27,309 nt of DNA from Psammoneis japonica (lineage: Eukaryota): positions 62,001 through 89,309 of the forward strand of contig QPGO01000254.1 of NCBI GenBank assembly GCA_008632985.1, in the 5' to 3' direction. The notes under the pieces are model-generated. The model was not told where the DNA came from and made no database searches. It saw nothing but the letters and a program-made list of their open reading frames with translations. This document shows, piece after piece, positions 2,843 to 27,309 of this stretch; position 1 is the first letter of the stretch, and each line of letters opens with the position of its first letter. Both the position numbers and the translations under genes were made by a program.

Positions 2843-2981
2843 ACGTCAGAGTTGGCTAAATAATTAGCTCACTTATTCTGACATCACTCGAAAACTGGTG
2901 AGGTGTGTCAGGTTGGACCGTCCGCGACCAATCAGAAAGCAAGACTGTGAAAGCATTCTGATTGTACGAGAGTTCTGACGT
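2843..2981. promoter_or_regulatory. Two TGACGT (bZIP/aureochrome-type) elements and a CCAAT box upstream of the HSF gene
   Basis: ACGTCA at 2843-2848, TGACGT at 2976-2981, CCAAT near 2928. Confidence 0.25.
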
Positions 2982-3229
2982 AGAAATCTCCGTAGCTTCA
3001 CAAATTGTTTGATGCAATTGGCGGCACGTACAGCGCCGTACAAAACCTACACAAAAACACAAACATCACTTTTTGCTTGACGCCGCTTCAGCACTTCACA
3101 CACAACCTTGATGCCAATCGAATTGCTTTTGCGTTCGTCACAAAAAAAGTTGAAGGCAAAAGGCATCACGATATGCAGTCGTTGACACCACCAACAAATT
3201 ATTCTAATCAACCTTGTAACTCCATCAAG

Positions 3230-4034: not shown

Positions 4035-4319
4035 TAAGGAAGGAGCATTTTGTTGTAAATAATATTTGCTTCCAACCGCGCTATGTAAATAATCAACCAA
4101 GTCGTGCTAAAAGCTAAACAAGAGGACAAAGCTAAGAAGCACGTACACGCTAAATTAATAAATTACAATCTACATGCAACTCAAACTCCCATTCGTCTAT
4201 TGTATGAAGGTAGGAAAGGGCTGGAGGGCCGACATACAACAGGTCCTGACTCCTCCTACCTCTGATGCCTTTTAGCTCGTATTTGCACAAAAAGCTCGTG
4301 ATTTCATAACCGTGAGTAC

Positions 4320-5599
4320 CTTGGGCATCGCTGGGCATCATCGTGCACGCCACAAAACCATGTGTCACACGTGATCTGTTTCCGAATCATCAAGCTTTGT
4401 TGTCCATGCCACATTCTCTGTTGGCACTCTGAGTCCTTGCTCACATTGAAGAATGATGAGGACACAGACACATGTTCCCGCTCGTGTTCCCCCCCCCCCC
4501 CCCCCCCTCACAGATCTCATGCAACAAAAAAAGAGATTGGCTCCAGCCGGGGGCATTGCACCACCTCCACACAAACAAAAGTTCTGACTTGCAAACAATC
4601 TTTGACACAATGGAGAGAAGCCTTGCAAGAGAAGAAATGATGAATTGGGTTCACATGTTGTGCGTTCATTTTCATCAGTTGTTGCGACAATTGCAGTGCT
4701 GTGCTTTTCCTTGCTGTTGCTTTCCTTGTGGAGTTTCTCTTTGCAGGTCACACAATGCCATGCATTGTTTCCAATGAGATCACTTGTTGTGTCAGCCTGA
4801 ACCGAGCACTGCTGCTCTCTTGAGTGGAGCCAGAAGACATCTTGAGTTGGTTAGAAGTGCTCTGATTTTTGGACAAGTTAAAGCTCACCTGCTTGCTGCA
4901 ACGGTTTGAAAACATGCTCTGTTTCTGCAAACCAAAGTTTGCCCTTGGTGCCCTCACCAGTTTTCTTCTCCTTGGCAAGCAGCACATGCAACATGAACAG
5001 AGGAGCCTTTTTTGTGCTTTTTGATTCAATTTTTTTGTTGCAACAGCACTTGCACCTTCAAATTTGGTGCTTGATGAGAGAACACAGCCTCTTCTGACAA
5101 GCACTCTGGCAAGAACACAAAATGAGCTGGTCAAAAGAACAATGACTCTGATGGACATCAGCTTCTGAAACAAGCCATTTGATTCATGACCCACCCACAA
5201 ACTTGCTTTTGAGGTGTGTTTAATTTTTGATGCACAAAGAGTGCAAGACAAACAAAAGAGTTGGTGGACAAACACCATCTCCACTGTCAGCACACTCCTC
5301 TGAATCGCCCAAAGTTGCGGTGCTGTGATCGCATGTTGCAAGCAGCACTGTGAACTTTTTTGGCAGATCATTGTGAAAGTGGTCTTGTCTTGGCCAGTGT
5401 TGCCATTGTGGCACTTAAACATGTCAAACAAGAACGACCCAAGATGTTGGATGCAAGTTGCCAATAATTGGAGCCACAGGAGACTGGCATTTGCAAAATG
5501 CAAATTGGAAATGTTTCCCTCTCCTCACAACCAACCCGCCCCTTCCGGTGGTTGTGTGTGTCGTGTCTCGTGTCACTCCGCGACCCAACCCGCCAGGCT
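4320..5599. mobile_element. TpA/CpG-depleted island, probably a hypermutated repeat or transposon relic of unidentified family
   Basis: Only 5 TpA in ~1.28 kb, few CpG in the core, Tyr-free ORFs, C19 run at 4489-4507. The composition is seen directly; TE identity is inferred. Confidence 0.55.
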
Positions 5600-5944
5600 T
5601 AAATAATATGCGGTTTGTATCATTTTATGATATCCCAATCTGTATATTATTTCTATTCCGTAATTCAAATTGCCACGACTGCAGTCATTGCCGGCGCGTG
5701 GCCGTGGCTTCTCGTTCCCTGGGCGTCTTCGATCTTGTTTCTGCGTTAGCGTGTTGGAGTGTACCGGTATAACCTTCTTCTTATCCTCCCATTTTGTTCT
5801 TTAAGCATACATAGCGATCGCTCCTTCATATATATTCTTTTACTGAACCAGTTCCTTTTACATTCCTTACCAACAGCCGGTATCTTTCTTTAGACTTACG
5901 GACGACGGGTTCTTGAAAAAGAAAAAGTGCTACTTTTCTCCACG

Positions 5945-7548: not shown

Positions 7549-7941
7549 GAAGATTTCTTATTATTATTACTATTTAGACGATTTGCTTTATAAAGCACAG
7601 TAGTTTTGCTTGCTGATGCTACGGGATCCTTGATGAGTTTCAATCAGAGATGTAGCTTGATGACTCCTGCGGGCTTCCAAACTCGGGACGATTTTATTCT
7701 TGTTTGACGGCAGTTGTTGTCCCGTCATGGTCATTGCTCAAAATCTCGTCCTTGCACTACTTCAGCGCGTGCGTACAGTACGTGCAAGACGAAATCCGTC
7801 GCTTTGAGGCAGGCAAACCCAGTACTCTAGCTTATGGCTCGTCAATATGCAATCATTACTAACACAGCAACAAGATCTACCTTAAAACAGCACTATCGAC
7901 AAAAGACTCTGTATTTTTTTTTCATACGAGTACTCATCACA

Positions 7942-10003: not shown

Positions 10004-10450
10004 ACGGTGACGACATAGAATACATAGGTGGGTTAAGTCCACTTCCTTTTGCTCTCTCAACTCTCAACCACACTGCACACTGAACGTAACGAGCACAAGC
10101 CACAGCTTTTTCGTTTCTTTATTACTTCAAAATTCTAATTTCAAGAATTGGGGTTCCTATATAGTATGTATTTATTCGATTGTGGATACATCTATAACGA
10201 TTGTTACAATCGTCTGTTTCCGTTGAATTTCAAAATTTTCTTTTTATTAAACAACTCACATACATGATCATACGCGGACCTCTAGCTACGAATTCAAAAA
10301 TGTGATTATGGACGTTGGCTGTTGATTGAGGGATGTTGTTTGACGCTCACACTTTTTCGACCGCTTCTTGTCACTGCCTTTGAAAGATTCAAACAGACTG
10401 TGTTTTTTGAATTGCTAAAGCTTTGGTCGTCCGATAAACAAAAAATCACC

Positions 10451-13400
10451 ATGAGTTTTGTCCTCCCGCTAGTAATGGCAGTCGTGGCACTGTTTGTCGC
10501 GTCCGCAGAAGGCAATCTACTAGGCATCGGTCAAGATTGTGTTGGTCATTCCCAATGTGAATCTGGTTTGTGTCTGAAAGGCGCTCGGAAGCTGGGAAGC
10601 TCTGGTACTTGTCAATGCAACGTTGTGACGAATGGTGGCTGTAACGATGGAAAAAACTGTACCAGTGTCCCTTCTGGAACACCGATTTGTACAGCGTGTG
10701 GCGATCCACAGGCACCCTGTATGGAGAATTGGAATCACTGTCGTGAAATGGAACTCAGTGGATGTTCTTCCATCATTGGGGATGACAAGTGCTCCGCTAG
10801 GCTTTGCTTGTGGGGACGTCGGAGACTCATTGACTCAATTGCTACTACCTATTGGAGCTCCGTGTAACTACGACGACTCTAGTTGTGAGACTGGGCGATG
10901 CTTTTTCAGCTGGACGACTCCAGTGCCGGAATGTTCCTGTGACGTGATAACGAATTTAGGATGCCCATCTGGTTCAGAATGTGCAATCAACATTGTGGAT
11001 GATGGACCTCCTTTCTGTGCCCTTCCGGATGGAACAGCCTGTGAAGAAGGGCTGCAGACAGACTGCTCGGTAAATAGCCCTACTTGCTGCAAATCTGGAA
11101 TTTGTTCCGGCGGTGTGTGTGTAGTAGCACCTCCGTCGCAACTTGGATACAGTTGTAGGGAAAACTCTGACTGCGATACGGGTTACTGCTATCACGGCGA
11201 AAAGCCTCCTTACACCGCTGGAACATGTCAGTGCAACCCGTCGAATGACGCTGGCTGTTCGGGGGATCTCAAGTGTAAATTCAGTACGATCATTGCAGAC
11301 CTTGCTCCGTTCTGTGGATATCCACTAGGCGCTACTTGTACAGTCAGTTCTGCGTTCGAGTGCGCTTCAGAAAACTGCTACAAGGGAACTTGTCACTGTA
11401 ATCCGAATTTCGTGAACACAGGATGCCTTTCAAGTCAAGAGTGCGTCGGCGATGAAACCGTTGGGTACCACTGCCAAGACCCTCCTACATTACCGGATCC
11501 TGATACTGACACCAGTCCACCTACGCTTGCTCCCGCGACCGACCCGTTACTGCCGATTGGTGCTCCGTGCGATTTCGACGACAGTGTCTGTAAAACAGGC
11601 AGATGCTTCTCCGGATATACGTCAGATTCGGTATGCTCGTGTGACGTGGAAACGAATGCGGGTTGTCCTTCTGATTTAGAATGCGCCATTAATATTATCG
11701 ATAGTGGTGGTCCTCCGCACTGTGTCATACCAGACGGTGAAGCTTGTGCAGAGGATCGGCAGGAGGATTGCTTGACAGGTACTTGTTGCAAATCAGGCGT
11801 ATGCTCCGGTGGCGTGTGCGTCGAGGCACCTCCATCCCCATTAGGATACAGTTGCAGGGAAAACTCAAACTGTGACACTGGATTTGTTATCACGGCTTCA
11901 AGCCTCCTTATACTGCTGGTTCGTGTCAGTGCAATCCGTCGACTGACGCTGGCTGCTCGGGAAATCTCGAGTGTACAGTTAGTACGGTTGTTGCAGACAT
12001 TGCTCCATTCTGTGGCTCTCCAATAGGTTCTGTTTGCACTGTCGGCTTTGATTTCCAATGTGCGTCAGAGAACTGCTTCAAGGGAATCTGTGAGTGTAAT
12101 CCGGATATGGAAAACACCGGTTGCCCTTTAAGTCAAGTTTGCGTCGTCGATGAAACCGTTGGGTACCAATGTCAAGACTCTCCTATATCACCGGCTCCTG
12201 ATGCTGACACCAGTCCACCTACGCTTGCTCCCGCGACCGACCCGTTACTGCCAATTGGTGCTCCGTGCGATTTCGACGACAGTGCTTGTGAAACAGGCAG
12301 ATGCTTCTCCGGATACACGTCAGATTCGGTATGCTCGTGCGACGTGGAAACAAATGCGGGTTGTCCCTCTGGCTTAGAATGTGCCATCAATATTGTCGAT
12401 AGCGATGGTCCTCCATTCTGTGTCATACCGGACGGGGAAGCTTGTGTGGAGGATCAGCAGACAGATTGCTTGGTAGATACTTGTTGTAAATCCGGCGTCT
12501 GCTCCGGTGGCGTGTGCGTCGAGGCGCCTCCATCCCCATTTGGATACAGTTGCAGGGACAACTCAGATTGTGACACTGGATTCTGCTATCACGGCTTTAA
12601 GCCTCCTTATACTGCTGGTTCGTGTCAGTGCAATCCGTCGACTGACGCTGGCTGCTCGGGAAATCTCGAGTGTACAGTTAGTACGGTTGTTGCAGACATT
12701 GCTCCATTCTGTGGCTCCCCAATTGGTTCTGCTTGTACTGTCGGCTTCTATTTTGAATGCGCGACAGAGAACTGCTACGCGGGAATCTGCGATTGTAATC
12801 CTAATTTGGAAAACACCGGTTGCCCTTCAAGTCAAGTTTGCGTCTCAGATGAAACCGTTGGGTACCAATGTCAAGACCCGCTTATATTACTACCGGCTCC
12901 TGATTTTAGCACCAGTCAATCGACTTCTGCTCCCGACCCTTCGACTACAACGCTGCTGCCCATTGGTGCTCCTTGCGATTTCGACGACAGTGCTTGTGAG
13001 ACAGGCAGATGCTTCTACGGATATACGTCACTAGAATCTGTATGCTCGTGCAACGTGGAAACGAATGGGGGGTGTGCGTCTAATTTGGAATGCGTCAGCA
13101 ACATTGCGGAAGACAGTGGCTCTCCATTTTGCGCCCTTCCTGATGGGGAAGTATGTGTAGCAGATCAGCAAACAGATTGCTCGTCAGGTACTTGTTGCAA
13201 ATCTGGTGTCTGTTCAGGTGGTGTATGCGTGCCAGCACCACCATTGCCATTTGGGTCAAGCTGTCGCGACAACACCAATTGCGATACGGGGTATTGTTAC
13301 CACGGCTACAAGCCTCCAGATACTCCTGGCTCGTGCCGGTGCAACCCGTCGACCGACGTTGGCTGCTCAGGCGACCTTAAGTGCACATTTAGCACCCTTT

Positions 13401-14631
13401 TATCGGATTTCGCTCCGTTCTGTGGTTCTCCAATTGGTTCGACTTGTAACACGGAGGCTGAGTTTGAATGCGCATCAGAGAATTGCTTTATGGGAACCTG
13501 TCAGTGTAATCCGAATTTCGTGAACACAGGATGCCTTTCAGGTCAAGTTTGCGTCGGCGTTGAAACCGTTGGATACCAATGCCAAGACCCACCTACATTA
13601 CCGGCTCCTGATGCTAACAACAGTCAGCCTACGCCTTCACCTGCACCTGACCCGTTGAATACTACATTGCTACTGCCCATTGGCGCTCCATGTGATTTCG
13701 ACGACAGTGTCTGTGAGACGGGCCGATGCTTCTCTGGATATACGTCAGAATCGGTTTGCTCGTGCGATGTGGGAACCAATGCAGGATGTCCTTCTGGTTC
13801 CGAATGTGTTATTAACGTTTCGGAATATGATGGTTCTCCATTCTGCGCCCTTCCGGATGGAACAGCATGTGTAGCAGATCAGCAAATAGATTGCTCTTCA
13901 GGTAATTGTTGCAAATCTGGCGTCTGCTCAGGTGGTGTATGCACGCCAGCACCACCGTCGCCCTTTGGGTCAAGCTGTCGAGACAGCACCGATTGCGATA
14001 CGGGGTATTGTTTCCACGGCTTCAAGCCTCCAGATACTCCTGGCTCGTGTCAATGCAACCCGTCGACCGATGCTGGCTGCTCAGACGATCTCAAGTGCAC
14101 ATTCAGCTCCTTATTCTTGGATTTTGCTCCATTCTGTGGTTATCAAATTGGTTCTACTTGTAGCACGGACGCTGAGTTTGAATGCGCATCCGAAATTGCT
14201 TCATGGGAACCTGTCAGTGTAATCCGAATTTCGTAAACACCGGATGCTTTTCAAATCAAGTTTGCGTCGGCGATGGAACCGCTGGGTACCAATGCCATGA
14301 CGTTGTTTCCCAACCAGCTCAGGAAGCTGGATCCATTTCACCTTCACAGGCTCCTGTTTTCATCTCGGAGGTACCTACACTATCAGTTGAATCAAACGTA
14401 CCTTCTGACATGCCTACAAAGGCTCAATCCAATGTACCTACAAGTGCACCTGTTTCGACATCCGTTGCACCTACACAAGTTGGTTCCAGTGCACCTTCAC
14501 CTTCGTCATTTTCTATCACAAAGACAGCGAACAATCTAGGTATTGATGACGAATCGGCAGCCCCGTCAAGTTCTACCATCTTGTTTGGATGCACTTTTTC
14601 CATTTGCTGTGCCATTTTCTTTCTAGCCTAA
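10451..14631 (+). CDS. Large secreted Cys-repeat protein 2 (~1393 aa after repairing frameshifts at ~10780-10793, ~11884 and ~14194); five 30-Cys units; Ser/Pro/Thr stalk; GPI-like tail
   Basis: Signal peptide MSFVLPLVMAVVALFVASAEG; sister units show exactly which base is missing at 11883-11885 and 14193-14195; tail ILFGCTFSICCAIFFLA. Confidence 0.87.
10842..14300 (+). repeat. Five intragenic tandem units of ~700-717 bp
   Basis: Units begin with LLPIGAPC at ~10842, 11547, 12245, 12953 and 13670. Confidence 0.92.
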
Positions 14632-14887
14632 GTAGGTACAAGGTGCGATTCAATCGCATCAATAGAGTTTATTCATTATTCATAAGACAGTATAGCAGAT
14701 GGATTGCTTTTCCAACGTAGTCCCTAGCGATGATTTTCATGGACGCATGTGAAATAGCGAATTGAGCATAGAATAGAAAACCAAATGGGATTTCATTTTG
14801 TTCCTCAGCCGTGATATGAACCTCTGGAGGGGCTGCTTTTACACATATTTCCTAGAACGAGGTTTGAACGAGTCCTTTTGTTTGTCC

Positions 14888-16534
14888 CTAGGTGGCAATG
14901 CCCGGTGTCACACGCTCTTCTCGCGTACGTTCAATCCCAACAAACTTCAAAAGCACCTGTTCAATCCAAGGATTGGTGTCGCCCAATTTTAGTTTCAACA
15001 AAAAGTATTTTTCGAAAAGTACTTTGGATAGCCACGAGACAAATCCATTGTCGACCGTTACGTCAATCGATCGTGGTGATATTTGAGGAACCGTAAGAAA
15101 AATGGCGCCTTCGCCGCCACCAAAATCCGTTATACACAATCCATGCAAGGAGGGCTTACTCGTCAGTTTCACTTTACCCCGCTCTTCCTTTTTGTTTTTG
15201 GATTCTTCAATCAAGCGATCAATATTGTGAACAACGGCGGTACCCATGCTTTCAATCATGTATCTAGAAATGCAAAAGCAAGGAGTACATTGTGAGTGAA
15301 AAACGAGCAAACGACAGTATACGAAATGTGCACGGACAACACAAAACTACACATACCCAGTCTTTGGCACGCCAAGAGCTACGGGAGTATCGAATGACGG
15401 GAGTCTGGATAAGTGAACACACACTCCGACTGCAAAAATGTTATCAAAGGCTTTGGATTGCTGGTGATCATTCACCAACACCAGACCTTTTTCATCGGTC
15501 AGACCGGGAACGGACTTCCAAACGTCGTATCCACGAAAGGGTGGAATCAACATGGTCAATCGGCTAGTCAACTTGGCGTCCTTGATGACCTTGCCGGTTT
15601 TCTTGTGCAATTCTTGAACGTGAACACTGTCGGGTTCCACCTTTTTCACTCGAGAATTCGCCATGTACTCGACATTGTGCCGACCCAACGTTTCAATCAA
15701 GACATTACGAGAATTTCCAGCTCCATCCAAACCCAAATGACCAATGTACGGTTCGGGCGTGACAAAGGTCATGGGGCATTGATCGACCAAGGATTGCCCC
15801 CCGGCCTCCTTTAGGGCATTTTGTAACAAAAAGGCGTATTCATAGGCGGGTCCAAAACACGATGCACCCTGTGTCGCACCCACCACGACGGGTCCGGGTT
15901 GCGCAATCAATCGTTGCAACGCCGTGGCAGCGTCTTGGGCGTGGGGAGTGGTACAAACCGATTTTCCCGATTCCTTCATGCCAGTTATTTCTTCAAAGGC
16001 CAACCGTGGACCCGTGGCAATGACCAAGTAGTCATAATCGACAATCGTCGTTTGCTTGTTATTGTCAGTCAATGTCAATTGCTGTCGTTTCGGATCCAAC
16101 CTTTGTGCACGGCCATGCACAAACTCAATGCCGTGTTTGGGAAGAAGCTCTTGCAAATTTAGTTGAATATCCTTTGGTTCTCTCGTCTTGACGGCCACCC
16201 ACGGATTGCTCGGTGTAAAGCTGAAAATGTCTCGATCGGAAACGACAATCACCTCAACTTTGGTTCCAAGTTCGTTGCGCGCATCCAAGGCGGTGGACAA
16301 GCCACCCACGCCACCACCCACCACCACCAATCGTGGTCGTCGTCGTTTTTCAAATGAATCGTTTCTTGCCGACATTGACAAAGCGCTGTGCATCGGATTT
16401 TTCGGAACGATCCGTCTAGACACAAAGGGGCTTGTTGTTTTCAAAGAAACGGGTTGTGCCGAAAAGGCCGTAACGACGACTGGGCTTTCCTTGGAAATCG
16501 GAAGGAGTAGTGAACAAAGGAAGAAGAGATTCAT
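14888..16534 (-). CDS. sqr: Sulfide:quinone oxidoreductase, type I (SqrA-like), with putative bipartite plastid presequence; intron 15264-15356
   Basis: VVVGGGVGG, FTPSNPWV, LVIATGP, SVCTTPHA, GASCFGPAYE, EPYIGHLGL, VPKTG|YMIESM (joined across a GTATGT...TCTAG intron), LCITDFG, FEKYFL. Confidence 0.92.
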
Positions 16535-17007
16535 GTTGAGCTGTTTTTGAGAAAGGTAGTTTTGTTTGTGAGAACATGAACGAAGCTGATCGGCACGAGA
16601 GGGTTCGCATCAAAGGCCAAAAAATGAGGGACCGTGTCACGTTTTCGGAGAAAATGTGAGACCCTAATTTCTCCGTTTTATCCATTTCTTTAATTATGTC
16701 TAAAAGCTAATGTTTTTAGTCGTGATCGCTAGTCACGAATCAATCCATGACCAGCGAGAACCGATCGATCTTCGCGCGACTTTCAGACTGCGCCCGTTCA
16801 AAGTTCACACGTCCCTTTTTTCTCTTGCTTCAAAACAAACCAACAGCGACGGTGTTGCAGCAGCCGCAGCAACAACGAACAGCGTCACGTCTCATCAAGA
16901 ACAAAAAGCCGCCATAGGTTGACACAATTTCTCAGAGTCTACTGGTGACTGTCCTTGAGGAAATACCCTACAAAAAGTGTTAAGAGGAATTTTTATTGTG
17001 TCTTACC

Positions 17008-19140
17008 ATGAATTTGCAGCATCTCCCCGCTACCCTCCTCATTGTTGTTGCTCTCCTCTCAACAACAACAACAGTTTTTGCTCAAGAGCCCATTGGATCG
17101 GTATGTCGACAAGATTCTGATTGTGAAACGAGAGCTTGCTTTTTTGGTTTTGAAAACGAAGGAGTTTGTACCTGCAACACGGATACAAACCAAGGCTGCT
17201 CCAGTCCTGCGACTTGCAGTATTGACATTTCACAGCCAAGTCCGGCACTGCCTCCGTTCTGTGCCTTGCAAGAGGGACAGCCTTGTGATTTACAACAACA
17301 AGGATCCGATTGTTTCTTGACAGAACAATGTTGCAAGGGCAAATGTAGCACCGACGGAGGAATTTGTAAAGCATATATTCCTCGACCGATTGGAGAAACA
17401 TGCGGCATAGCTTCGGATTGTGATTCTAATTTTTGTTTTCGATCCATTCAACCTGCCGATACACCGGGACGTTGTCAATGCAATGTCAATACCAATGCGG
17501 GTTGTCCTCCCAATGAGAATCGCACGTGTCAATTTTTTGAATTCTTTGCCGATGGACCTCCGGCCTGTGCGCTTCCCATGGGTGCCGCGTGCAATGACAC
17601 AAGAGCGTTGGATTGTGACACGACGGTTTGTTGGAATGGGACCTGTCAGTGCAACATCAACTTGGTCAATTTGGGATGTACGGGTGATGACGTTTGTGTT
17701 GGTGACGAAGAGGTGGGGTATACCTGTAAGGATACGTCCGAACCGGTTGGTGAACTCTTGCCGATTGGAGCGGCTTGCCAAGAAAAGTCAGAATGCGTTA
17801 GCGACTTTTGCTTTGTTGGTTTTGGAGACGGCGGCGTGTGTACGTGCAACCCGCGGCTCAATACTGGATGCAATACTGGAACCGAGTGTGTTGTTGGTAT
17901 TTCCGAATCATCGTCAGCTGTCCCTCCCTATTGTGCTCTCCCAGATGGTGCTGCGTGTAGTGAACCGGCTGTAGATACCGAGTGCTTTCTTCAAGACGGT
18001 GGTTGTTGCCGAGGAAGTTGTTTGCAGGATGGAACCTGTGAAACAATCTCCAATTTACCGTTTGGATCTCCATGTCGCATTAATACAGACTGTGAAAGCA
18101 ATGTTTGCTTTTATGGCTTGATCCCTCCCGGCTCGCCGGGAAGCTGTCAATGCAATGTAGATACCAACGTTGGTTGTACGGGTGGTCGTACGTGTACATT
18201 TGTGGAGACTGTGATGGATGCACCAGCCTTTTGTGGATTACCTATTGGGGCAAGTTGTGATGCTGAAAATCCATTGGACTGCAGTTCAACTCAGTGCTTC
18301 AACGGAACATGCCAATGCCACAAGGACTTCAACGCCGGTTGTGCGGAAGGGCAGGTTTGTGTGGGTGATGAAAATACCGGGTATACCTGTAACGACGATA
18401 CGTCCGAGCCAGGAGAAGGCTCACCGATTGGATCAGTATGCAAACAAAACATGGATTGTTTAAGCGATAATTGCTTTTTTGGTTTTGGAGACGGCGGCGT
18501 TTGTTCGTGCAACACAAGGCTCAACACCGGATGCAATAGTGCGACCGAGTGTGTTGCTGGCATTTCTGAATCAAGGGCAACTGTGCCTCCCTATTGTGCT
18601 CTTCCGGACGGTGCTGCCTGTCAGCCACCTGCTCCAGATACCGAGTGTTTTCTTCAGGATGGCTGTTGCCGAGGAAGTTGTTTGCAGAACGGGACTTGCG
18701 AAACAGTTTCTGCTTTATTACCGGTCGGTTCAACATGTCGCGAAGATGCTGACTGTGAAAGCAATGCTTGCTTTTTTGGCTTGGTCCCTCCTGGTACACC
18801 AGGAAACTGCCAATGCAACCTGGACACCAACGATGGTTGCACCAGTGGCCGCACCTGTACTGTCTTGCAGTTTTTGCCAGACGCGCCTCCCTTTTGCGGC
18901 TTGCCGGTCGGGGCAACGTGCGATCCTGAAATTACCCTTGACTGTAGTACAACTCGGTGCTTCGAAGGCACATGCCAATGCCTTGAGGAATTCAACGCGG
19001 GGTGTAGTGAAGGACAAGTTTGTGTTGGAGACGAAAGCACGGGCTATTCATGCACCTCGACGTCCGCAACCGCCACTCTTCGTCCTACAAGCTATCTCCT
19101 GTTTCTATGTGTTTGTTTGGCAATGATAATAATTATGTAA
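17008..19140 (+). CDS. Secreted Cys-repeat protein 3 (710 aa, intact); three 30-Cys units; GPI-like or TM tail
   Basis: Signal peptide ending TVFA|QEP; units start at ~17089, 17761 and 18424; tail YLLFLCVCLAMIIIM. Confidence 0.9.
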   Translation: MNLQHLPATLLIVVALLSTTTTVFAQEPIGSVCRQDSDCETRACFFGFENEGVCTCNTDTNQGCSSPATCSIDISQPSPALPPFCALQEGQPCDLQQQGSDCFLTEQCCKGKCSTDGGICKAYIPRPIGETCGIASDCDSNFCFRSIQPADTPGRCQCNVNTNAGCPPNENRTCQFFEFFADGPPACALPMGAACNDTRALDCDTTVCWNGTCQCNINLVNLGCTGDDVCVGDEEVGYTCKDTSEPVGELLPIGAACQEKSECVSDFCFVGFGDGGVCTCNPRLNTGCNTGTECVVGISESSSAVPPYCALPDGAACSEPAVDTECFLQDGGCCRGSCLQDGTCETISNLPFGSPCRINTDCESNVCFYGLIPPGSPGSCQCNVDTNVGCTGGRTCTFVETVMDAPAFCGLPIGASCDAENPLDCSSTQCFNGTCQCHKDFNAGCAEGQVCVGDENTGYTCNDDTSEPGEGSPIGSVCKQNMDCLSDNCFFGFGDGGVCSCNTRLNTGCNSATECVAGISESRATVPPYCALPDGAACQPPAPDTECFLQDGCCRGSCLQNGTCETVSALLPVGSTCREDADCESNACFFGLVPPGTPGNCQCNLDTNDGCTSGRTCTVLQFLPDAPPFCGLPVGATCDPEITLDCSTTRCFEGTCQCLEEFNAGCSEGQVCVGDESTGYSCTSTSATATLRPTSYLLFLCVCLAMIIIM

Positions 19141-19575
19141 ATCTGATCTGAGATCTGACGCTACTTAAATGTTCCCGCAGTAGGACCTTCTGCTCTACTC
19201 TCTAGAGCTAGTAGCTAGAGCTGTTGCGCCCCGTACAAACTTTCCGGGTGATGGCTGCGACAGATAGCTTGCGATCTTTCGCGCCTCAACTTTCTACGAG
19301 AAATTCACGTACATCTTCTACGTTCTAACGATCCAGTTGACACCTCCGAACCCTGAATCCATCAAAGCAATCAGAACATCGCGTGTTGATCCTTCTTTAC
19401 GATTGCTGTGCAGTTTTCCGTGATGACGGGAAAAAAACATCAGTATTTTGGGTTGCGATAGGATTGCTCGACACAATAAAATCATCTGTTCGGATCGAAT
19501 CACCTTTCATTGACTATAATATTTTAAAGTGAAACAAAGGCTTAACCCTCCGCAACATAAAGCGAGAGAAGATAT

Positions 19576-21680
19576 ATGACATCAACCGTGATGGGACGCG
19601 ATGAAAGCTTGAAGTGTCGATCGGGTGTGACACCCACGCGACGAAACGCTCTCCACCAGGCTGATTTGGAGTGGGCTTCACGCGGTGATGGTTGGTGGAG
19701 TCCGTTGTACCAGGCATTTGTCAATTTCATAATGTTGATCACCTTGATACCACTCAATGTGCTGATCCTTCTTCTCGCGGCCTGGCCACTAGTTTTGAGC
19801 TATCGCATGAAGGTAATGTCCCTTGATTCCATTCTTTACCTGATCTTGACGTATGTGTTTGCGCGGGTAGTGCTACTATACCTTCAGCCCGACGAGGATC
19901 CAAAGGACAGTGTTCCTCCAAAAGAGAAACTAACAGTTGCTGTGATCGGTGCGGGCCCAGGTACGTAATCGACTTCAACGCGTCACCTTCTACAACTCGC
20001 ATATCTCACTGGCACGTCTTCTGCTGCTACTTTTTGAAAGCTGGTTTGGTGACAGCCAAAGAGTTGATTGCCGAAGGTCATGTACCCGTGGTCTTTGAAC
20101 AGAGCTCTGCCATTGGCGGAGTCTGGCAGCGAACTGGAAAGCAGTGCGGCCGAGGACAAGCTCTTGCAAACACAATGACCTCAAGCTCAGCATTAAACAC
20201 GGCCTTTTCGGACTTTCCCATTCAAGCCGAGTATCCAGGACCAGATCCCTACTTTGCGAGTCAAGAAGCCTTCATGGACTATCTTTCAAGGTATGCCAAG
20301 TACTTTGGAGTTGATCAGTACGTCAAACTCAACACGAGTGTGAAGGAAGTTACAAAGATGAAGGACGGGCGATGGCAGATCAAGACGGTGCAGACAAGCA
20401 GCAAAGTCGAAAATGTGCAGGAGTTTGACAAAGTAGCTGTCTGCTCTGGGCAAACAGCTGTTCCAAGGATTATTAAGTTTGAGGGTCAGGATAATTTCAA
20501 AGGAAACATTATCCATTCGTCCGAGCTTTTTGATGAAGACGATTTTGAAAGGTTCAGAGACAAACGGGTCTTGGTGGTTGGAGGCGGGGAGACCGCGTCA
20601 GATGTTGTCTTGGATCTCTGTGACAAGGTAAACGTTTGTGACGTGTCACTCCGAAATCCGCTTCAAGTTCTACCGCGGAGCATGTGGGGACTTCCACCTG
20701 ACTATTACGAGACCCGTGTTCTCTATCAAGCACCTCGTTTTGCTCGCTGGGCAACCTACAAGCTCGTCATAGTGACCACCGCCTTCTTCAACAACGCGTT
20801 TGCTCGTCAGTATGGAGGCAAAATGCTTTGGGCTCCATCCATCTGGTGGAACCTACGGTTACTCTTCACCAAAAAATACATATCTGAATGCTTGACAGGT
20901 GTGAGAACGATTTGCTCATCGGTCCAAACCACCAAGAGCGACAACCTTGTCTTTGCGCTGAGTCAGAACAAAGAGAAGTGCAGCATTCGAAGTGGTGTCA
21001 AATGCATCAACAATGATGGAGCGGTTGTTCTGGATGACGGCAGCATACAGCAGTACGATGCCATTCTGCTAATGACGGGATATCAGCCGTCAAAGTTTCC
21101 ATTCCTTCCGAAAGCGCACATGACAAATAAGGTATGTGAACGGTATCTTGGAGTATTCCACCCGGATCTTCGAGACATGGCATTCATTGGCTTTATGCGA
21201 GGACAAGTGGGCTCCCTCATTATGGGTTTTGAAATGCAGGCACGCTGGTTTGCCTTGATATGTTCCAAGAAGAGAAACCTTATCAGTGAGGTAGAGATGC
21301 AAGCCCATATATGCGAGTCAGCGAGGACTCATTACTGTTACAACGCCACGTCAGGTGTCTGGTTTTATACAAACTATCTTGCTCGCCACTGCGTCGGCTG
21401 CGAGCCAAACTTCGTGAGGTTCTTCTTGCATGCTCCTGTGGCCTGTGTCAAGGCTTACTGCTCCCAATTTGCCGCATACCAGTTTCGAATGCGTGGCCCT
21501 CACTCCGACCCTCAGTCAGTGGTGGATGGTTATGCTCTTTCCGACGGTATCATCTACATGCTACCCGCCTGGCACTGTCTCGATCTCTTGTGGGTACTTC
21601 AGGGCTTTTGCTTTGAGGTCTGGGGTCTGATTCCGGGTCTAGCAGTGTATCTGGCACCGCTTTTGAGTCAATGGACCTGA
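19576..21680 (+). CDS. Flavin-containing monooxygenase (class B FMO, ~674 aa) with N-terminal membrane extension; intron 19961-20040
   Basis: VAVIGAGP|AGL across a GTACGT...GAAAG intron; GGVW; FMO signature FKGNIIHSSELF; NADPH site VVGGGETASD; TGY; EMQARW. Confidence 0.92.
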
Positions 21681-23580
21681 GCAAGGTTGTAGCCGGGGGA
21701 ACGTTGCAACGATCCAGCCAACTGCATAAATTGTTGCTGGCATGTGTTAGGATGCGACGTTCCCACCCTAGGTACATGTTTTCCCTTCAATTCATTCTAG
21801 TGCATAATTTCATAAGCCACTGGTGAATGAACAAACTCATCTTGTGCACTTATGTGAGTGCGTCTATTGACATTTGGTAAAAGCAGACTTGACAGCAAGT
21901 CTCGGTGCCTTCCCTTCAACACGACGACAGACTTCTGGATGAAAGGGACTTGGGACTTGGAAATCTGGTGTTTGCGAATTTTACGGGTGGGGCACAAGGC
22001 GCCGTTATTTTGATGCCATTGCAAAAGCGGCCTTGTTTAAATTGGATCTGCATGCATTTTTCCAACACTGCCACCCAACACCACTGACTTGTTTCAAGTG
22101 GCAAGCACCTGAGCTTCTCCATGTGAGCATGCTGTTGTGGAGTCCAAGTTTCTGAGGCTTGTCTTTGATGGGCAAGGAACCTCCAGGTCCTCACCATGCA
22201 AAGACCCAACTAAAAAGCATGCTGGCAGCACTCACTGCTTTGATCCCCCCTTCTCTGCAAGAGCTGTTGGCACCACCTGGCCAGTTTTGGTTGGCATGTG
22301 CAGCAAGACTGTGGTTGAGTGGCACCCAAAGCAGGAGACTGCTGCAGCATGTGAAAAGCTGATTGTGTGGAAATGTTCTGGGGTTGTCATGAAGTGACGT
22401 GGCCAAATTTTATGTTGTTTTGATGTCAGGTCATTGTGCAGTGGTGCTTTGATGTCTTTTTCTGCTTGAGACATGCACTCAGTCAGACATTGTCAGAGAA
22501 TTTTTTCCATTGTCACACTTTGGCAACAGTGCAGTGGCTGCATTGAATGATGCCATTTTCTTGTTCTTGATGAGTGCAAGCTTGTGCTCACACACAACAC
22601 TTTGACAATGGTGCCATGATGCTGGCAAGTGCGGCAAACAAAAGCAAGGAAAGTGGAGTTCAGCATTGTTGCACAAACACCTGATGCAACCAGCACATTG
22701 TGTTGGTTGGTTCTTGTGCAAGAAATGCAGCTCACCATCTTGCTGCCTGCCATGCCTCACCCTCCTTGCCCAGCATGAACTAAAAAAAATTGCAGCACAG
22801 AAAACACACATTCTGTTCCCACCTTTTCTGAAGTGTGTGTGCAAAAAACACCCACATCTTGTTTGAAGAGAAGCAAACTTCTTCTTTCTTTGCTCACATC
22901 TCAGCATGAGCACACCCACACCACAGTGTTTTTGCATGGGGCAAGTCAACAACAAGCGCAAGCAAGGGGGGAGTGACAACACACATGTGCCTTTGGCATC
23001 TTGCTTTTTCATTTCTGTGTTGGTGGGAAAGCCACCTTTGTCTTGGAAGCTCCAGCTTTTTCATGTGGCACAGATTGCTGTCTGGCTGGCTCTAAAACAA
23101 ATTTTGTTTGCAGACAACACAGCCAAGAAAATGTGCAAGCACAGAGCTGGGCACCCAAAAGCTGCTTCATCTGGGACACCAAAAATCTGGGTCTGACTGT
23201 CTGCCACAATCTGGGAATTTCTTGACTGCAATCCCAGATTGTTGCAAACTTGCTGCAAGCCAAGTCCTCCCCCAAATGCAAGATGAGAACCACACAAGTT
23301 CACAAGCTTCTAAAGTCCAAATTGCTCCCCACTTTCAAGTGTGAACCTTTTTGCACATGACCACAATCTTGACCCCTGTTGACATTTGCAGTTCCTTGTT
23401 CATTGAACACTTTTGTTGCTGCTCACAACCCACCCTCCTTGTCTGCAATTTGCATTTTGTCTCTTTGCTTTGTTGTTTTAAAAGCCAAATGTGCAACTGC
23501 CACATGTTCTTGAATTTGAATTGCTTTGCAGAATGCCTTTTTTTTGTCATCTGGATTTTGTTGTTTCCTGCAATTTGCGT

Positions 23581-24530
23581 TCACACACCAGTTTGGTTGG
23601 TTGCCATGGCAGCAATTGCTTCTGCTTTGTTGCTGGCAGCCACCACCTGCAATGGCAGGTCCTCTCCCATTGGCGCTGCCCGTCCTTCCTCTCTCTTGTG
23701 TTTTTTGTTTTCCTCCCTGGACAAGTTTGTCTTCTCTTGCCTTCTCTCCTTGAGCCATGCACCAAATCCTTTGTTGCTCTCTTGGTCTTTCACCACCCAC
23801 TCACACAGATCATTGCACTTTTTGATCCCCTCCTTGCTCCATCCTTGGCTCCTCTTTGCCAAATCCCCCACTGCCTGTGCCATGCACTTTGCAGGAGCAG
23901 CATCCTGCACTGTCAGCTTCCTCCTCCTTCCAATGTCATTTTCCTTTTCCAATTTCTCTGCTGTGTCCATCACCTTGTTGCAGCAGCTCAAGTGCTCCAG
24001 CAGAGCAAATGCCTTGATGAAATGGAGAGCCACTCTTGGAGCAAATTGGCTGTGCTTCCACCAAACTGTGCTTGTCCCACCACAGTCTGCACCAGAGTTT
24101 CTAAGAACCACGTGCACGTGTCTTTGTCAGCTCTCTTCCCTTTGTCAAATCTTTGCACTTCACCAGCAGCAACCCCTCTAAAGCAGCAGCTGCACAGATG
24201 AAATCAATGGAAGTGACACTCAACCCATCAGACAATCCCCTCCAACACACTTGAATGCGCGCACATTGCTGCTTGCCTGTCATCCTCCTCCTCATGTTGT
24301 CCTGCACATTGTTCCTCTTGCGGTTGAGTTTGGTTCTGAACACCTCTCTGCATTCTTCCCAGAATGCCTCTGGCAAAGACACCATGCTCCTCAACTCATG
24401 CAGAACCGTTTTCATGAAATCTTTTCCTCCAGCCATTTCTTTGTTGAAGATTGTGAACTTGTGATGCAGCAAAACACTTTCATTGATTGCCTTTGCCAGC
24501 ATGGACCCAGTCAATTTCTTGCCCACTGCT
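23581..24530 (-). pseudogene. Decayed two-exon gene of unknown function (relic intron 24276-24190)
   Basis: FWEE(C>Y)REVFRTKLNRKRNNV; (C>Y)TWFLETLVQTVVG; AFALLE; AK(CM>YT); GWSKEGIKK(C>Y)NDL(C>Y)EWVVKD(Q>R); frameshifts between blocks. Confidence 0.6.
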
Positions 24531-26409
24531 GGAGCTTGATCCAACACATGGCAATGCTCCATGAGAGTCACCACTGAACTCAAGTCCCCACCCACAAACT
24601 GGAGTCGATTCAGCTCCCCATGTTTGTTTGTTTGTTTGTGCATTGAACAAGGCCGCCACCAGGCCGCAGGACTCATTGCAACTGTGTGTCACACCACAGC
24701 GGCAAATCACAAGTCATCAGTGCATCAGCATCTCTTTGTCATGCCCTTCTCAACCCAACTTGCTGCTCGAAGTTGTGCTTCCTCCCTCTGTTGCACCTGT
24801 GACAACTGTGTCCTCCATCATCTTTCCCTTCCCAACAGGCAGCTCTCTTGTGTTGCACTGTTGGCCTCATCTTGCCCGGTTCATGACAAGGAAAGTTGTG
24901 AAATGAACGCACTTTGCATGTGATTTTCTCTGTTTTCTCATTGCTCACGCATCCTCTCTTGATTCAAACAGGTGTTTGCATCATTTTTGAGCACTCATTT
25001 CCACCAACCCCATGTTTGAATGTCCATCAACCTTCCACTGTTTTGAATTGTGCTCCATTGCAAGCCAATCCAACACGCAAATGAAGATTGGCACACTCTT
25101 CAAATTAACCCCAAACACCACATTTTTTTCTCATTGTCACAAAACATGCACTCCACTTCTTTTCTGATGCAACATCAGTTTCACATGGTTCAAAATTTGT
25201 GCTTGACCCCACATTTTTTTTGTGCCAAACCACATGTGCCGTTGCCTCTTTTTCATTTGTTTGCAACTTGTTTGATCATTCCCTCTGCTTGTCTGATGCC
25301 ATCTCTCTCCACCAACCACTCTCTCCATCACCCAAACTGGTCCATTTCACATTGTGACAACACATGATGTGTGTGTGCAAATTCAGGAACGCACCTGTCC
25401 ACAATTTTGCACATTCTCTGTCACTCATCCAATGGTCACTGACACATCTCATTGTTGCTGAGACATGGCAGCAGTGAATTGCATCAACCACCAGGAACAT
25501 GCGTTCCCTGCATTGCCATCACATGCTGCCAACTAAGCATCAATTTGGTCATGTTGCTGGTGGCAGCGTGAGATCTCACTGTGGTGCTGCAAGCTTCAAT
25601 TTTTTTGCCAAGGTCATTTGTCACCCTGCACTCTTTGGCACTCAGACTCAAAGCCAGTTTAATTTCATCAATGTTGGTGGTGGTTGTGCCAGTTTTGCAA
25701 TTGCCTGTCATTTGCTTGTTCCATCCTGCAAGGCCTGCAGCATGGAGCTCCACAGTCCTTGTCACAACTTGGGCTGTGACTGGTGTGCTGGCATCTGGCC
25801 CAACTCTCCTGGCAGTCATCCTGCCCTGATCAATCAGTCATTCCTTGCTGAAGATGATGCAGTTTGCTGTTTGCACCATCAGAACAATGCCAAGATTTTC
25901 TTTGGCAACTGCAATGGGCTGGTGATGCTTTTTGGCAAGAATGGGACACAGAACCACCTTGAGGAGATTCTGTCCAATGAGTGTGCTGAAGGAACTGTTG
26001 TCATTTCATTTGACATGATGTTTTGTGGGTGCACCACAAATGGACGCATGCATCCTTTTTTGTTCCTGCCTGCCAAACCGATCTGTCATGGGGAGGCAGT
26101 GTCAACAGGCACCTCTTTCACAAGTGCACCAAAAAAAGAGATGGCGCCATCAAGCCAAAAGGCATTCCACTGGAAACAATCTTGCAATGGACATCAAATG
26201 AAAGTTCCACCCTTCCAACAACATGGGTGGCATGTTGCCATCTCATTTCCATCTGGCAACTCTTTTCCATTTGAACATTGTGTTGTCAGTCGCCATTTCC
26301 ACAAACTTGCTTTCTATGTTGACAAAGATGCTGCCTGCTTTTGATGACCAACAACTTCTTTTTTCTCTCACAATTGTTCACAAGACACCATGTGCTTGCA
26401 GCATCAAAA

Positions 26410-26715
26410 TTGTGGGCTGGACATGCCATGTTCCTTTGATCTGAGTTGGTTTTGTTTGGCAAAGCAATGTTCTAGCATCAAAAACAAATGATGCACCTGC
26501 TTCTCCCACCAACAATTGTTTTTCCAAACCCAACCCAACCAAGTGTCTTCATCATGCTCTTTCTCATTCAAAACCACCTTGCAACCATCCGGCCATGTCT
26601 CGATGGTGCCATTGTCCTTTGTGGTGTCGTCAAGGAACAGAAACATGGTGGACATTTTGTTTCCAGGAAACAACTCTGTTTTTCTGCATGATCATGATGC
26701 ATTTCCCCTTTGACC
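26410..26715 (-). pseudogene. Decayed 2OG-Fe(II) dioxygenase (PhyH-like) fragment
   Basis: Ordered motifs in shifting frames: GEMH(H>R)D; TMFLFLDDTTKDNGTIETWP; GEAGASFVFDAR; H(C>R)..LPNKTNSD(Q>R). Confidence 0.55.
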
Positions 26716-27274
26716 CGGTTGCTTTTTGTCCACGTCCTCCGCCAGTGGAAAGTCTGGAATGAAGTCCAACATTTTTCTGCCAACTCAATGCCTCCACCTC
26801 GTCCTTTTGTTTGCCAGCAAACTCTCTGACAAAATGGTGTCCTTCTTTATCCTGTTGTTTCTTGGTGCTTTGTTCGCCAGAGCAGCAATCTGGTTTGGCA
26901 AGAGTTGCAGCATTTTGAATTTTTGTAAGCAGCAATGCTGGTGAGCAGACTGGGAGGACATCAAAGTCCTCATCAGGGGCAACATGCCATGGCCAGTTGC
27001 AGAGGATTGTGTGGATCAAAGGAAGAAACTGAAACAGAGTCAACACCTGGGGAGGAGGAGCTGGCTCTTCCATCAGGCGTGACATCAAGGGTGGACCAAA
27101 ACTGCCATCAAGACATTCTGCTCCAGCGAACTCAGCAACATCCACAAGACTGTCCTCTCCAAGGGCAGACACACCATCATCTGCAAACAAGACAAATCGG
27201 CAAGAGTTTTCAGTGGCTGCACTGGTGGCAGCAACATTGGTGGCAACACGCAATCAACCAGGGCATCTGACGGA

Positions 27275-27289
27275 GGGGGGGGGGGGGGG
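27275..27289 (+). repeat. G15 homopolymer followed by TG
   Basis: ATCTGACGGA(G)15TGCAG read directly. Confidence 0.9.
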
Positions 27290-27309
27290 TGCAGACCATT
27301 TCCAGCAGA

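Follow-up and report, generated by a model that had tools for sequence, protein, structure and literature searches.

The window, a 27,309-nt stretch of Psammoneis japonica contig QPGO01000254.1 (positions 62,001 to 89,309), contains genes of ordinary composition alongside two blocks of DNA that have lost most of their TpA and CpG dinucleotides (below, TA and CG). The larger block, island 2, lies beyond an FMO-like gene that serves as an internal control and for which the RNA-like run X2 provides a spliced GT..AG joint at 19958/20039; it extends to the end of the window, so that its right border lies outside. The smaller block, island 1, is located between two ordinary genes.

4484..5536, no strand: island 1, second block purged of TA and CG (observed/expected ratios, TA/CG positions, Poisson test)
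4489..4507, + strand: island 1, C19 homopolymer at its left edge
20034..21680, + strand: FMO-like gene of ordinary TA and CG content (Pfam PF00743, E 4e-50; composition)
22040..27309, no strand: island 2, purged of TA and CG and rich in CA and TG (dinucleotide observed/expected ratios, TA/CG positions, Poisson test)
22040..22650, no strand: single-copy part of island 2, equally purged (contig depth 60.6 in the public DNA run X1)
22651..27309, no strand: multi-copy part of island 2 (summed X1 contig depth 252-1960, compared with ~55-60 for single copy)
27275..27289, + strand: G15 homopolymer in island 2, 20 nt before the window end (C15 on the strand of the pseudogene described below)

Dinucleotide composition of the two islands

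Across the 5,270 nt of island 2, we counted 15 TA and 42 CG where base composition predicts 364 and 286 (observed/expected ratios, o/e, of 0.04 and 0.15), the loss of TA thus going beyond that of CG. Conversely, CA (621 vs 331 expected, o/e 1.88) and TG (580 vs 315, o/e 1.84) are in excess. Elsewhere in the window (1-22039), o/e values are 0.54 for TA, 0.93 for CG, 1.21 for CA, and 1.29 for TG, and at this flank density island 2 would hold 196 TA and 297 CG (Poisson P 1e-63 and 5e-77, respectively). Each 1-kb window of island 2 contains only 5-16 TA and CG together, compared with 73-112 in the flank, while G+C content is 47% vs 48% and AA/TT show no depletion (o/e 1.32/1.24 in the island vs 1.22/1.15 in the flank). 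The left border is sharp: the final CG and TA of the flank are found at 22028 and 22038, and the next TA and CG follow at 22211 and 22398. These counts agree exactly with the 15 TA and ~42 CG of the preliminary description, which had also recognized the excess of TG/CA and the abundance of both depleted steps in the flank; the o/e calculation that it had suggested, run here within the window, sets the island clearly apart from its surroundings. Its observation that open reading frames in island 2 lack Tyr and are rich in Cys and His is true, but is an automatic consequence of composition because there is almost no TA and an excess of TG and CA.

Island 1, which the preliminary description had overlooked, comprises about 1 kb with 5 TA and 9 CG where 39 and 59 are expected. 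We found no similarity between the two islands by blastn, and a transition-tolerant local alignment gave scores of 73.5 and 72.0 in the two orientations compared with a null of 75.7 +/- 10.7; as far as these alignments can tell, island 1 is unrelated to island 2. The whole window contains only two G/C runs of at least 9 nt.

Read support and copy number

Two contigs assembled from X1 bear directly on whether the purged sequence is real. The longer one, contig record 6 (2774 nt at depth 61), covers 20414-23197, crosses the left border of island 2, and departs from the window by 10 other letters and 12 gaps. Contig record 7 (898 nt) covers 25536-26433 with 5 other letters, and both records have an even depth of 59-61. 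Had TA and CG density been normal, one would expect around 100 differences per kb. In the flank, X1 differs from the window by an 11-nt indel and scattered SNPs and thus does not merely duplicate the assembly. The depletion in island 2 is therefore not a base-calling artefact, and the misreading of modified bases that the preliminary description had named as a possible undoing of its interpretation finds no support in this independent read set; even with the sequencing platforms of the assembly and of X1 unrecorded, we give such misreading only a minimal chance.

Most of island 2 is present at about 4-33 times single-copy depth. Over positions 7310-27309, we placed 600 X1 contigs, 69 of them at 99% identity or more, 90 at 95-99%, 221 at 90-95%, and 220 below 90%; their listed differences are transitions at 142 of 218 places. 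No unmutated or intermediate copy of island 2 DNA was seen. The first ~126 nt of the single-copy part lie inside an X2 contig (record 13; 21582-22166, depth 2370) that also takes in the 3' end of the FMO-like gene. Since these first ~600 nt of island 2 are single-copy yet equally purged, any targeting would not strictly follow detectable repetition.

A decayed gene in island 2

Profile searches show that island 2 carries a frameshifted pseudogene of an uncharacterized two-exon gene family (no Pfam family) with relatives among metagenome eukaryotes. Its recognizable parts are all on the minus strand:

24254..24562, - strand: exon-1 homologue with the RKRNNV motif retained (35-relative profile, E 7e-26, profile positions 29-130 of 132)
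24271..24276, - strand: splice-donor position of the family, reading G/GCAAGC in the window (slash, splice site) and G/GTAAGT (L003, L004) or G/GTACGA (L001) in relatives
24009..24140, - strand, frame -1: first part of the exon-2 homologue (71-relative profile, E 2e-6, profile positions 17-60 of 205)
23959..24015, - strand, frame -0: middle part of exon 2, anchored by eye (positioned differently by MAFFT)
23677..23874, - strand, frame -0: last part of the exon-2 homologue with RSQGWS and KHKREE motifs (E 6e-13, profile positions 90-155 of 205)

The initial search with exon 1 had returned 18 hits (best E 1.4e-14), and the invariant W, R, and NN of this exon are retained. We regard the gene as a pseudogene because exon 2 contains a frameshift, apparently a one-base loss in the codon following Ser-Ser, and because the splice donor reads GC; the profile matches are spread over three frames. 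Under the by-eye anchor, the family's invariant Tyr-Tyr (TAY TAY) corresponds to TGC TGC in the middle part of exon 2. A six-frame Pfam search of island 2 yielded neither a reverse transcriptase nor any other domain, and no relative of the pseudogene was found in a viral collection.

All 106 relatives contain Tyr (mean 3.2%), compared with none in the 213 aligned residues of the window, and four related loci have TA o/e values of 0.75-0.97 and CG o/e values of 0.50-0.84. Codon usage in the relatives includes 31 TAY and 61 NTA codons. Because the relatives of the pseudogene have normal TA and Tyr, the TA loss in island 2 is, by this comparison, derived relative to the gene family. Of 17 dinucleotide columns with TA in the majority of the 3-4 related loci, 8 read TG or CA in the window (P 0.024 against a background of 22.8%). 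The anchored 54-nt stretch adds 5 of 5 such columns, a count that is biased because the stretch was chosen after its Tyr-Tyr/Cys-Cys pair had been noticed, and that gives 13 of 22 when pooled with the rest (P 3e-4). Similarly, the GTAAG of the family's splice donor is GCAAG in the window, while columns with a CG majority show the corresponding change in 3 of 8 cases, which is not significant. The five profile columns with consensus Tyr read G, C, F, L, and L in the window, that is, one predicted Cys and no His; much else has changed besides TA, since protein identity to the relatives is only 24-42%.

Balance, strand symmetry, and sequence context

The purine/pyrimidine skeleton of the islands is intact, with 0.237 pyrimidine-purine steps per base compared with 0.247 in the flank. 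When we took the flank of the window itself and simulated the conversion of 96% of its TA and 85% of its CG, CA and TG reached o/e values of 1.89 and 1.92, close to those of island 2, and the mass balance thus supports a conversion of TA and CG into TG and CA. Both strands are affected alike, and site by site, as judged by the counts of CA and TG, a runs test (z = -1.8), and a chi-square test over 250-nt segments (P = 0.065).

Among the 20 TA that survive in the islands, Y-TA-R makes up 15 compared with 120 of 782 TA in the flank (P 9e-9), while R-TA-Y accounts for none compared with 264 of 782. Expressed as half-site survival relative to the flank, TAC (0.007) and TAT (0.032) were removed most thoroughly, followed by TAG (0.117) and TAA (0.244). 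A two-parameter model with independent half-sites predicts 0.33 R-TA-Y survivors, and none was seen; the survivors thus fit a half-site rule by which TAY is lost about 6 times faster than TAR. Their context could instead reflect the origin of new TA, for example by C>T at TCA, rather than removal.

A proposed local process converting TA and CG

We interpret both islands as decayed DNA, which in island 2 is mostly multi-copy and includes the broken two-exon gene. Nearly all TA and most CG would have become TG and CA through transitions that struck either strand, a reading to which we assign a probability of roughly 0.55. Two self-complementary pyrimidine-purine steps would thereby have collapsed into a single non-palindromic one. 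The loss of CG would be explained most simply by deamination of 5-methylcytosine, which is established chemistry, if the region is or was methylated. A second process is needed for TA because 5-methylcytosine deamination does not remove it. This process would act on DNA, in the same blocks that lose CG, equally on both strands and independently at every site, and would remove 5'-TAY-3' (5'-RTA-3' on the other strand) about 6 times faster than 5'-TAR-3'. Conversion probably took place in this genome after insertion, with targeting presumably by repeat or chromatin state. The preliminary description had proposed such a second, region-targeted conversion of TA into TG/CA, and this core of its claim is partly supported by a loss that is real, confined by a sharp border, located in multi-copy, decayed DNA, derived, and balanced in mass, whereas its mechanistic arm invoking a Pol eta-like polymerase is disfavored (see below).

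Among possible chemistries, we rank adenine deamination ahead of thymine modification in R-T-A, with error-prone repair behind both. As a tentative first choice, a deaminase that is recruited to silenced DNA would hydrolytically deaminate the adenine of T-A-Y, and the resulting hypoxanthine would be read as G. The DNA adenine deaminase that the preliminary description had listed as a candidate is compatible with the preference for TAY over TAR, and action on thymine in R-T-A is equally so. Known A-to-I deaminases of the CDA fold (TadA/ADAT2, ADAR) likewise deaminate adenine after a 5' U or T, with TadA/ADAT2 acting on U-A-C-G anticodon loops, and TAC is the context most thoroughly removed from the islands. 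In contrast, their known natural substrates are RNA, and we know of no natural DNA adenine deaminase that acts on chromosomal repeats.

Alternative explanations

The repeat family might have been poor in TA and CG before it spread, as an old purged master copy or as DNA of another genome or virus, so that no TA-directed process would operate today. The lack of any copy with TA and CG, the equal purging of the single-copy first 600 nt, and the conserved Tyr columns without a clean Cys/His pattern all speak for such an inheritance, and one signature shared by two unrelated islands would be expected if it marks old DNA of a particular age or origin. However, this explanation merely relocates the TA-removing process, and to our knowledge no genome signature reaches a TA o/e of 0.04. 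It also sits poorly with the normal TA of the gene family's relatives, with the lack of a relative in the viral collection, and with a skeleton and CA/TG excess that are exactly what conversion of this genome's flank yields. We therefore consider inherited composition unlikely, though well short of negligible.

A modest chance likewise goes to a symmetric, heritable mark on the thymine of TA in silenced DNA that mispairs with G and causes T>C, in parallel to 5-methylcytosine at CG; candidates would be 5-hydroxymethyl- or 5-formyl-uracil or an adduct like base J, made by a TET/JBP-type dioxygenase. Only the two palindromic pyrimidine-purine steps are eroded, and palindromes would allow a mark to be copied across replication; strand symmetry and a half-site rule that reads equally well as R-T-A agree with this idea. 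Thymine before A is reported to be enzymatically modified in nature, as 5-hydroxymethyluracil in dinoflagellates and as base J in the telomere repeats of kinetoplastids. In these lineages, we know of no reported TA erosion or other link between the modification and sequence decay. In dinoflagellates, 5-hydroxymethyluracil replaces 12-68% of thymidine with a distribution called random in the accessible part of the source (PMC6313786). For diatoms, the accessible literature yielded no report of such bases, and its texts that pair 5-hydroxymethyluracil with diatoms appear to concern dinoflagellates.

Error-prone patch repair, in which T:G mismatches left by deaminated 5-methylcytosine attract mismatch repair along with a Pol eta-like polymerase that miscopies nearby A:T, would account for the loss of TA and CG in the same blocks. 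It resembles the second phase of somatic hypermutation (MSH2/6 and Pol eta, at WA), where A:T is mutated as a sequel to cytosine deamination, and A>G at TA belongs to the Pol eta spectrum. The preliminary description had proposed this WA mutagenesis as its second mechanism, but AA is also a target of Pol eta and should drop, whereas AA/TT are higher in the island than in the flank. Near-complete loss at TA alone with a rule for the 3' neighbor, together with equal strands and no strand-biased patches where somatic hypermutation shows strand bias, further reduces this mechanism to a slim chance.

Selection on an active element to evade host nucleases or RNA decay directed at these steps is very improbable: avoidance of CpG and UpA is known for RNA viruses, as far as the available portions of the sources go (PMC7879557, PMC2707012), but the gene inside island 2 is broken (frameshift, altered splice donor, loss of the invariant Tyr-Tyr), depletion is as strong outside it as inside, and an o/e of 0.04 across 5 kb of non-functional DNA would require selection at hundreds of sites. 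A-to-I editing of element RNA at UA, fixed in new DNA copies by retrotransposition, is scarcely credible despite the preference of editing deaminases for a 5' U, since editing of one strand yields TG without CA and ~180 lost TA predict a TG-CA gap of ~180, contradicted by the observed 41, and no reverse transcriptase domain was found in six frames.

Comparison with known systems

Decay of methylated CG in vertebrate genomes and methylated transposons resembles the islands in its strand-symmetric change of CG into TG/CA with compensating excess, and in known systems it is confined to methylated DNA. The CG loss of island 2 (o/e 0.15) is balanced by a gain of TG and CA that simulated conversion matches. 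TA is left untouched in those systems, whereas in island 2 it falls from ~196 expected to 15, and deamination of 5-methylcytosine is thus rejected as the sole cause.

Fungal RIP (Neurospora and other ascomycetes; RID, DIM-2) is similar as a transition-only, dinucleotide-specific hypermutation of repeated blocks that affects both strands and produces pseudogenes next to genes that it spares. Within island 2, duplication and purging coincide over 22651-27309, and 22040-22650 is purged at single-copy depth. RIP consists mainly of C>T at CpA, creates TpA, and lowers G+C, whereas the island has TpA destroyed, CpA raised, and G+C nearly unchanged; RIP has no A:T>G:C component. Fungal RIP is therefore rejected as the cause by its opposite direction, as the preliminary description had correctly pointed out. 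RID-related DNMT4 genes are given for 31 of 60 diatom species in the available part of a survey (PMC9998398). Our literature search found no description of combined TA and CG purging.

The pattern of the islands suggests a local mutation process acting on TA, and no known mechanism accounts for this loss. Possible, albeit doubtful, is a RIP-like defense of opposite polarity in a eukaryotic alga that hypermutates repeated or silenced DNA at both steps, with an A:T to G:C enzyme for TA that would be a candidate T-A-Y-preferring DNA adenine deaminase or a thymine-modifying enzyme. If true, it would have no precedent as a natural A:T>G:C DNA hypermutator, nor as a RIP-type system beyond the fungi.

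TpA and CpG are jointly depleted in two blocks of the window

The preliminary description had counted 15 TpA and 42 CpG steps in a block at 22040-27309 (island 2). Our recount gave identical numbers, equivalent to observed/expected (o/e) ratios of 0.04 and 0.15 against the 364 TpA and 286 CpG expected from base composition. The accompanying claim of a TpG/CpA excess was likewise borne out, with o/e values of 1.88 for CpA and 1.84 for TpG. In the flank (the other 22 kb), the same ratios are 0.54 for TpA, 0.93 for CpG, 1.21 for CpA, and 1.29 for TpG. At flank density, island 2 would contain 196 TpA and 297 CpG (Poisson P = 1e-63 and 5e-77, respectively), and the two steps together number 5-16 per 1-kb window throughout the island versus 73-112 in the flank. 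The left border is sharp, with a CpG at 22028 and a TpA at 22038 followed by the next TpA only at 22211 and the next CpG at 22398; the right end lies beyond the end of the window.

A second block that the preliminary description did not list, island 1 (approximately 4484-5536; 1053 nt), contains 5 TpA and 9 CpG where 39 and 59 are expected and is flanked by a gene for an HSF-type protein and another open reading frame (ORF). The two islands have no sequence in common by blastn, and a transition-tolerant local alignment scored 73.5 and 72.0 in the two orientations, compared with a null of 75.7 +/- 10.7. The only G or C homopolymers of at least 9 nt in the window are a run of 19 C at 4489-4507, at the left edge of island 1, and a run of 15 G at 27275-27289, located in island 2 and 20 nt before the end of the window; a C run thus begins each block if island 2 is taken on the strand of its pseudogene (see below). 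Gene products of the window are HSF-type, FG-GAP, methyltransferase, and FMO-like proteins, with one GT..AG intron present. Tandem repeats in the flank lie in or beside ordinary ORFs (6254-6682, 192 nt x 2.2; 7343-7448, 33 nt x 3.2; 8069-8223, 57/24 nt).

Sequencing reads confirm the depletion and reveal a dispersed repeat

Public sequencing runs were aligned to positions 7310-27309 of the window. In the DNA run X1, whose contigs cover genes at an even depth of around 55-60, one contig of 2774 nt (20414-23197) crosses the border and extends 1.15 kb into island 2 with 10 differing letters and 12 gaps, and a second one (25536-26433) differs by 5 letters. If the true DNA had the usual TpA and CpG density, around 100 differences per kb would be predicted. 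The depletion is not a reading error, with the X1 platform, which is not on record, as the remaining caveat. X1 is also not a copy of the assembly but a second haplotype or strain, because it shows scattered differences in the flank and lacks 11 nt at 21981, just before the island 2 border. The pattern is real and very unusual.

The other runs mostly inform on the FMO-like gene to the left of island 2. Run X2 is labelled "DNA?" yet behaves like RNA, with a depth of 2400-6800 confined to this gene (19560-22166) and a joint that skips the GT..AG-bounded segment 19959-20038. As its contig extends to 22166, the 3' end of the FMO-like transcript appears to fall about 126 nt within island 2; a further contig of low depth (5.9) covers 22477-22658. 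Run X3 covered the FMO-like gene only within 7310-27309, and run X4 gave no contigs matching this stretch.

Over 22651-27309, the summed depth of X1 contigs rises to 252-1960, or roughly 4-33 times single copy. Among the 600 X1 contigs placed on 7310-27309, 69 match at 99% or more, 90 at 95-99%, 221 at 90-95%, and 220 below 90%, with transitions making up 142 of the 218 listed places of difference across this whole stretch. Given this summed depth and these diverged contigs, island 2 consists for the most part of a diverged repeat with dispersed copies. The first 600 nt (22040-22650) are present at single-copy depth and are purged to an equal degree.

Island 2 contains a decayed member of a two-exon gene family

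TGA is the only stop codon available in island 2, where the two strands together hold 25 overlapping ORFs with lengths of 80-281 aa. No Pfam family was found with 14 island ORFs (none reached a family's curated threshold; top hit at E = 0.045, 13.5 bits), with six-frame translations of both islands that ignored stops, or with further ORFs of the window and related loci. Rfam had no matches in the window, no internal repeats were found in island 2, and neither a word-based protein search with a single 191-aa ORF nor a metagenome scan with a plus-strand ORF returned a match.

An HMMER search with the minus-strand ORF at 24101-24676 retrieved 18 proteins, the best of them at E = 1.4e-14 and 42% identity, and alignment-based searches extended this family to 24 exon-1 and 71 exon-2 relatives, all of them "hypothetical" and originating from assemblies of metagenomes or sequencing runs. 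A repetitive 430-aa sequence, P0018 (E = 4.9e-4), was excluded as spurious. In four related loci (L001-L004), the gene consists of two exons, with a short intron following a conserved G|GTAAG donor. The family is widespread in metagenome assemblies and carries the motifs FPxKKF, RKRNNV, LCLENYY, RNQGWS, and ERKRKREE, and many of its database "proteins" terminate in Gly-Lys because the donor is read through. Profiles of the relatives match island 2 in three segments:

24562-24254, minus strand: exon-1 homologue (E = 7e-26)
24140-24009, minus strand: exon-2 homologue, first part (E = 2e-6)
23874-23677, minus strand: exon-2 homologue, last part (E = 6e-13)

These matches fall in three different frames, exon 2 has lost one base in the codon after a Ser-Ser pair, and the splice donor reads G|GCAAGC. 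The family member in the window is thus a pseudogene.

No Pfam family rose above noise for 8 exon-1 relatives and 4 locus ORFs (12 scanned), a sequence comparison of the family with the PDB gave no relative, and neither did a search of viral contigs with the exon-2 alignment. An AlphaFold model of exon 2 is confident (mean pLDDT 79) and all-helical, with a fold that was not recognized by Foldseek (best E = 1.7) or VIA-align (wide, best Z = 3.7), which does not imply that the fold is new. Among the related loci, L002 is missing both the intron and some of the RKRNNV region (734-845), and its two exons overlap in different frames; this copy could have been processed or have suffered a deletion. 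In L003, the family gene is preceded on its own strand by a 378-aa ORF (296-1432) in which an H-x-D ... H arrangement is visible by eye; Pfam gave this ORF no match above noise, and neither L001 nor the window has an equivalent.

The loss of TpA is derived relative to the gene family

Tyr is present in each of the 106 relatives, averaging 3.2% (Cys 1.8%, His 1.3%). The 213 aligned residues of the window copy include 0 Tyr, 6 Cys, and 7 His. TpA is common in the four related loci (o/e 0.75-0.97; CpG 0.50-0.84), whose exons contain 31 TAY and 61 NTA codons (Y, pyrimidine). Alignment columns were counted after excluding four "ex2m" rows of a misaligned exon-2 middle block. Where 3-4 loci gave a TA majority, the window has TG (5) or CA (3) in 8 of 17 columns (background 22.8%, P = 0.024); CG-majority columns were not significant (3/8). 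Directly behind the frameshift, a gap-free anchored stretch of 54 nt shows TG (4) or CA (1) in 5/5 TA-majority columns, and the invariant Tyr-Tyr of the family (TAY TAY) reads TGC TGC. This stretch is illustrative and not independent evidence, because it was picked after the Tyr/Cys pair had been noticed and MAFFT places it differently. The pooled value is 13/22 (P = 3e-4). Five profile columns with consensus Tyr read G, C, F, L, and L in the window, without a clean Cys/His pattern, which counts against this reading. Conserved Arg is retained at 9 of 13 positions, as expected from its encoding by AGR in 64/93 cases among relatives (R, purine). Compared with the gene family, the loss of TpA is a derived state.

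The replacement is symmetric between strands and proceeds site by site

The purine/pyrimidine skeleton of the islands is ordinary, with 0.237 YpR steps per base compared to 0.247 in the flank. Randomly converting 96% of TpA and 85% of CpG in the flank to TpG or CpA in a simulation gave o/e values of 1.89 for CpA and 1.92 for TpG, close to the 1.88 and 1.84 of the island. Both strands are affected equally (621 CpA, 580 TpG). With RNA editing fixed by retrotransposition, one strand would carry around 180 more TpG than CpA, a defining feature that this symmetry contradicts. Nor do TpG and CpA cluster by kind along the island (runs test, z = -1.8; chi-square test in 250-nt bins, P = 0.065), which argues against a processive single-strand enzyme of, e.g., the APOBEC-like type. 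Mutagenesis of the Pol eta type, which the preliminary description had listed as one candidate (A>G changes at WA), fails in its defining context, given that AA and TT are not depleted (1.32/1.24 in the island versus 1.22/1.15 in the flank).

Surviving TpA steps are biased towards Y-TA-R (15/20 vs 120/782 in the flank, P = 9e-9), and none of the 20 is R-TA-Y (264/782 in the flank). Relative to the flank and counting both strands, half-site survival is 0.007 for TAC, 0.032 for TAT, 0.117 for TAG, and 0.244 for TAA. A model of independent half-sites gives a survival of 0.065 for TAY and 0.64 for TAR, a rate ratio of 6.2, and predicts 0.33 R-TA-Y where 0 are seen. The contexts of the survivors could partly reflect the origin of new TpA. 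Surviving CpG mildly favor R-CG-Y (20/51 vs 255/1185, P = 0.005). At the DNA level, the two self-complementary YpR steps have thus given way to the non-palindromic step, symmetrically on both strands and site by site, and this replacement is limited to sharp-bordered blocks that hold multi-copy, decayed DNA.

A mutational origin of this pattern is likely. Loss of CpG would result from deamination of 5-methylcytosine (5mC), a decay that accounts for this arm alone, and loss of TpA would require a second process directed at the same blocks, either deamination of adenine to hypoxanthine or a mutagenic modification of thymine. Since TA is self-complementary, the TAY/RTA rule agrees equally well with either chemistry. 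Deamination of adenine may be rated slightly higher, as it would be a hydrolytic reaction like that at CpG and as CDA-fold enzymes with a 5'-U preference are known; these act on RNA, with TadA targeting a U-A-C-G loop. Thymine modification at TpA is known from other protists. The passages of a review considered here (PMC6313786) do not state it. Erosion of palindromic steps alone would suit marks that are maintained across replication. Each repeat copy may have been converted on its own, or all copies may descend from a purged master.

Comparison with known hypermutation and implications

To our knowledge, every known programmed or chromatin-linked DNA hypermutation begins at cytosine, be it RIP, 5mC decay, or AID/APOBEC. 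Fungal RIP resembles the pattern described here in being confined to blocks, limited to transitions, and specific for a dinucleotide, but the islands do not belong to it: RIP creates TpA, which here is lost. The RID-related DNMT4 is reported in 31 of 60 diatom species, with no RIP-like signature described in the part of that work considered here (PMC9998398). In a full-text literature search, no account emerged of TpA and CpG being lost together from repeats; the portion of the literature on TpA with transposable elements that it sampled comprises mostly studies of fungal RIP or transposons and a few on viral or animal CpG/TpA content.

Islands of this kind evade similarity searches and would be invisible to RIP indices, which seek the opposite signature. 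The absence of TAA and TAG stops produces long spurious ORFs, and gene callers would over-predict ORFs in such islands with TGA as the sole possible stop. With so extreme a signature and so many copies, the question is directly testable. Block-confined erasure of TpA through A:T>G:C transitions would represent a new type of mutagenesis and, through the loss of Tyr codons, TAA/TAG stops, and GTAAG splice donors, a new way to disable repeats. Any enzyme responsible for it would be nature's equivalent of the engineered adenine base editors.
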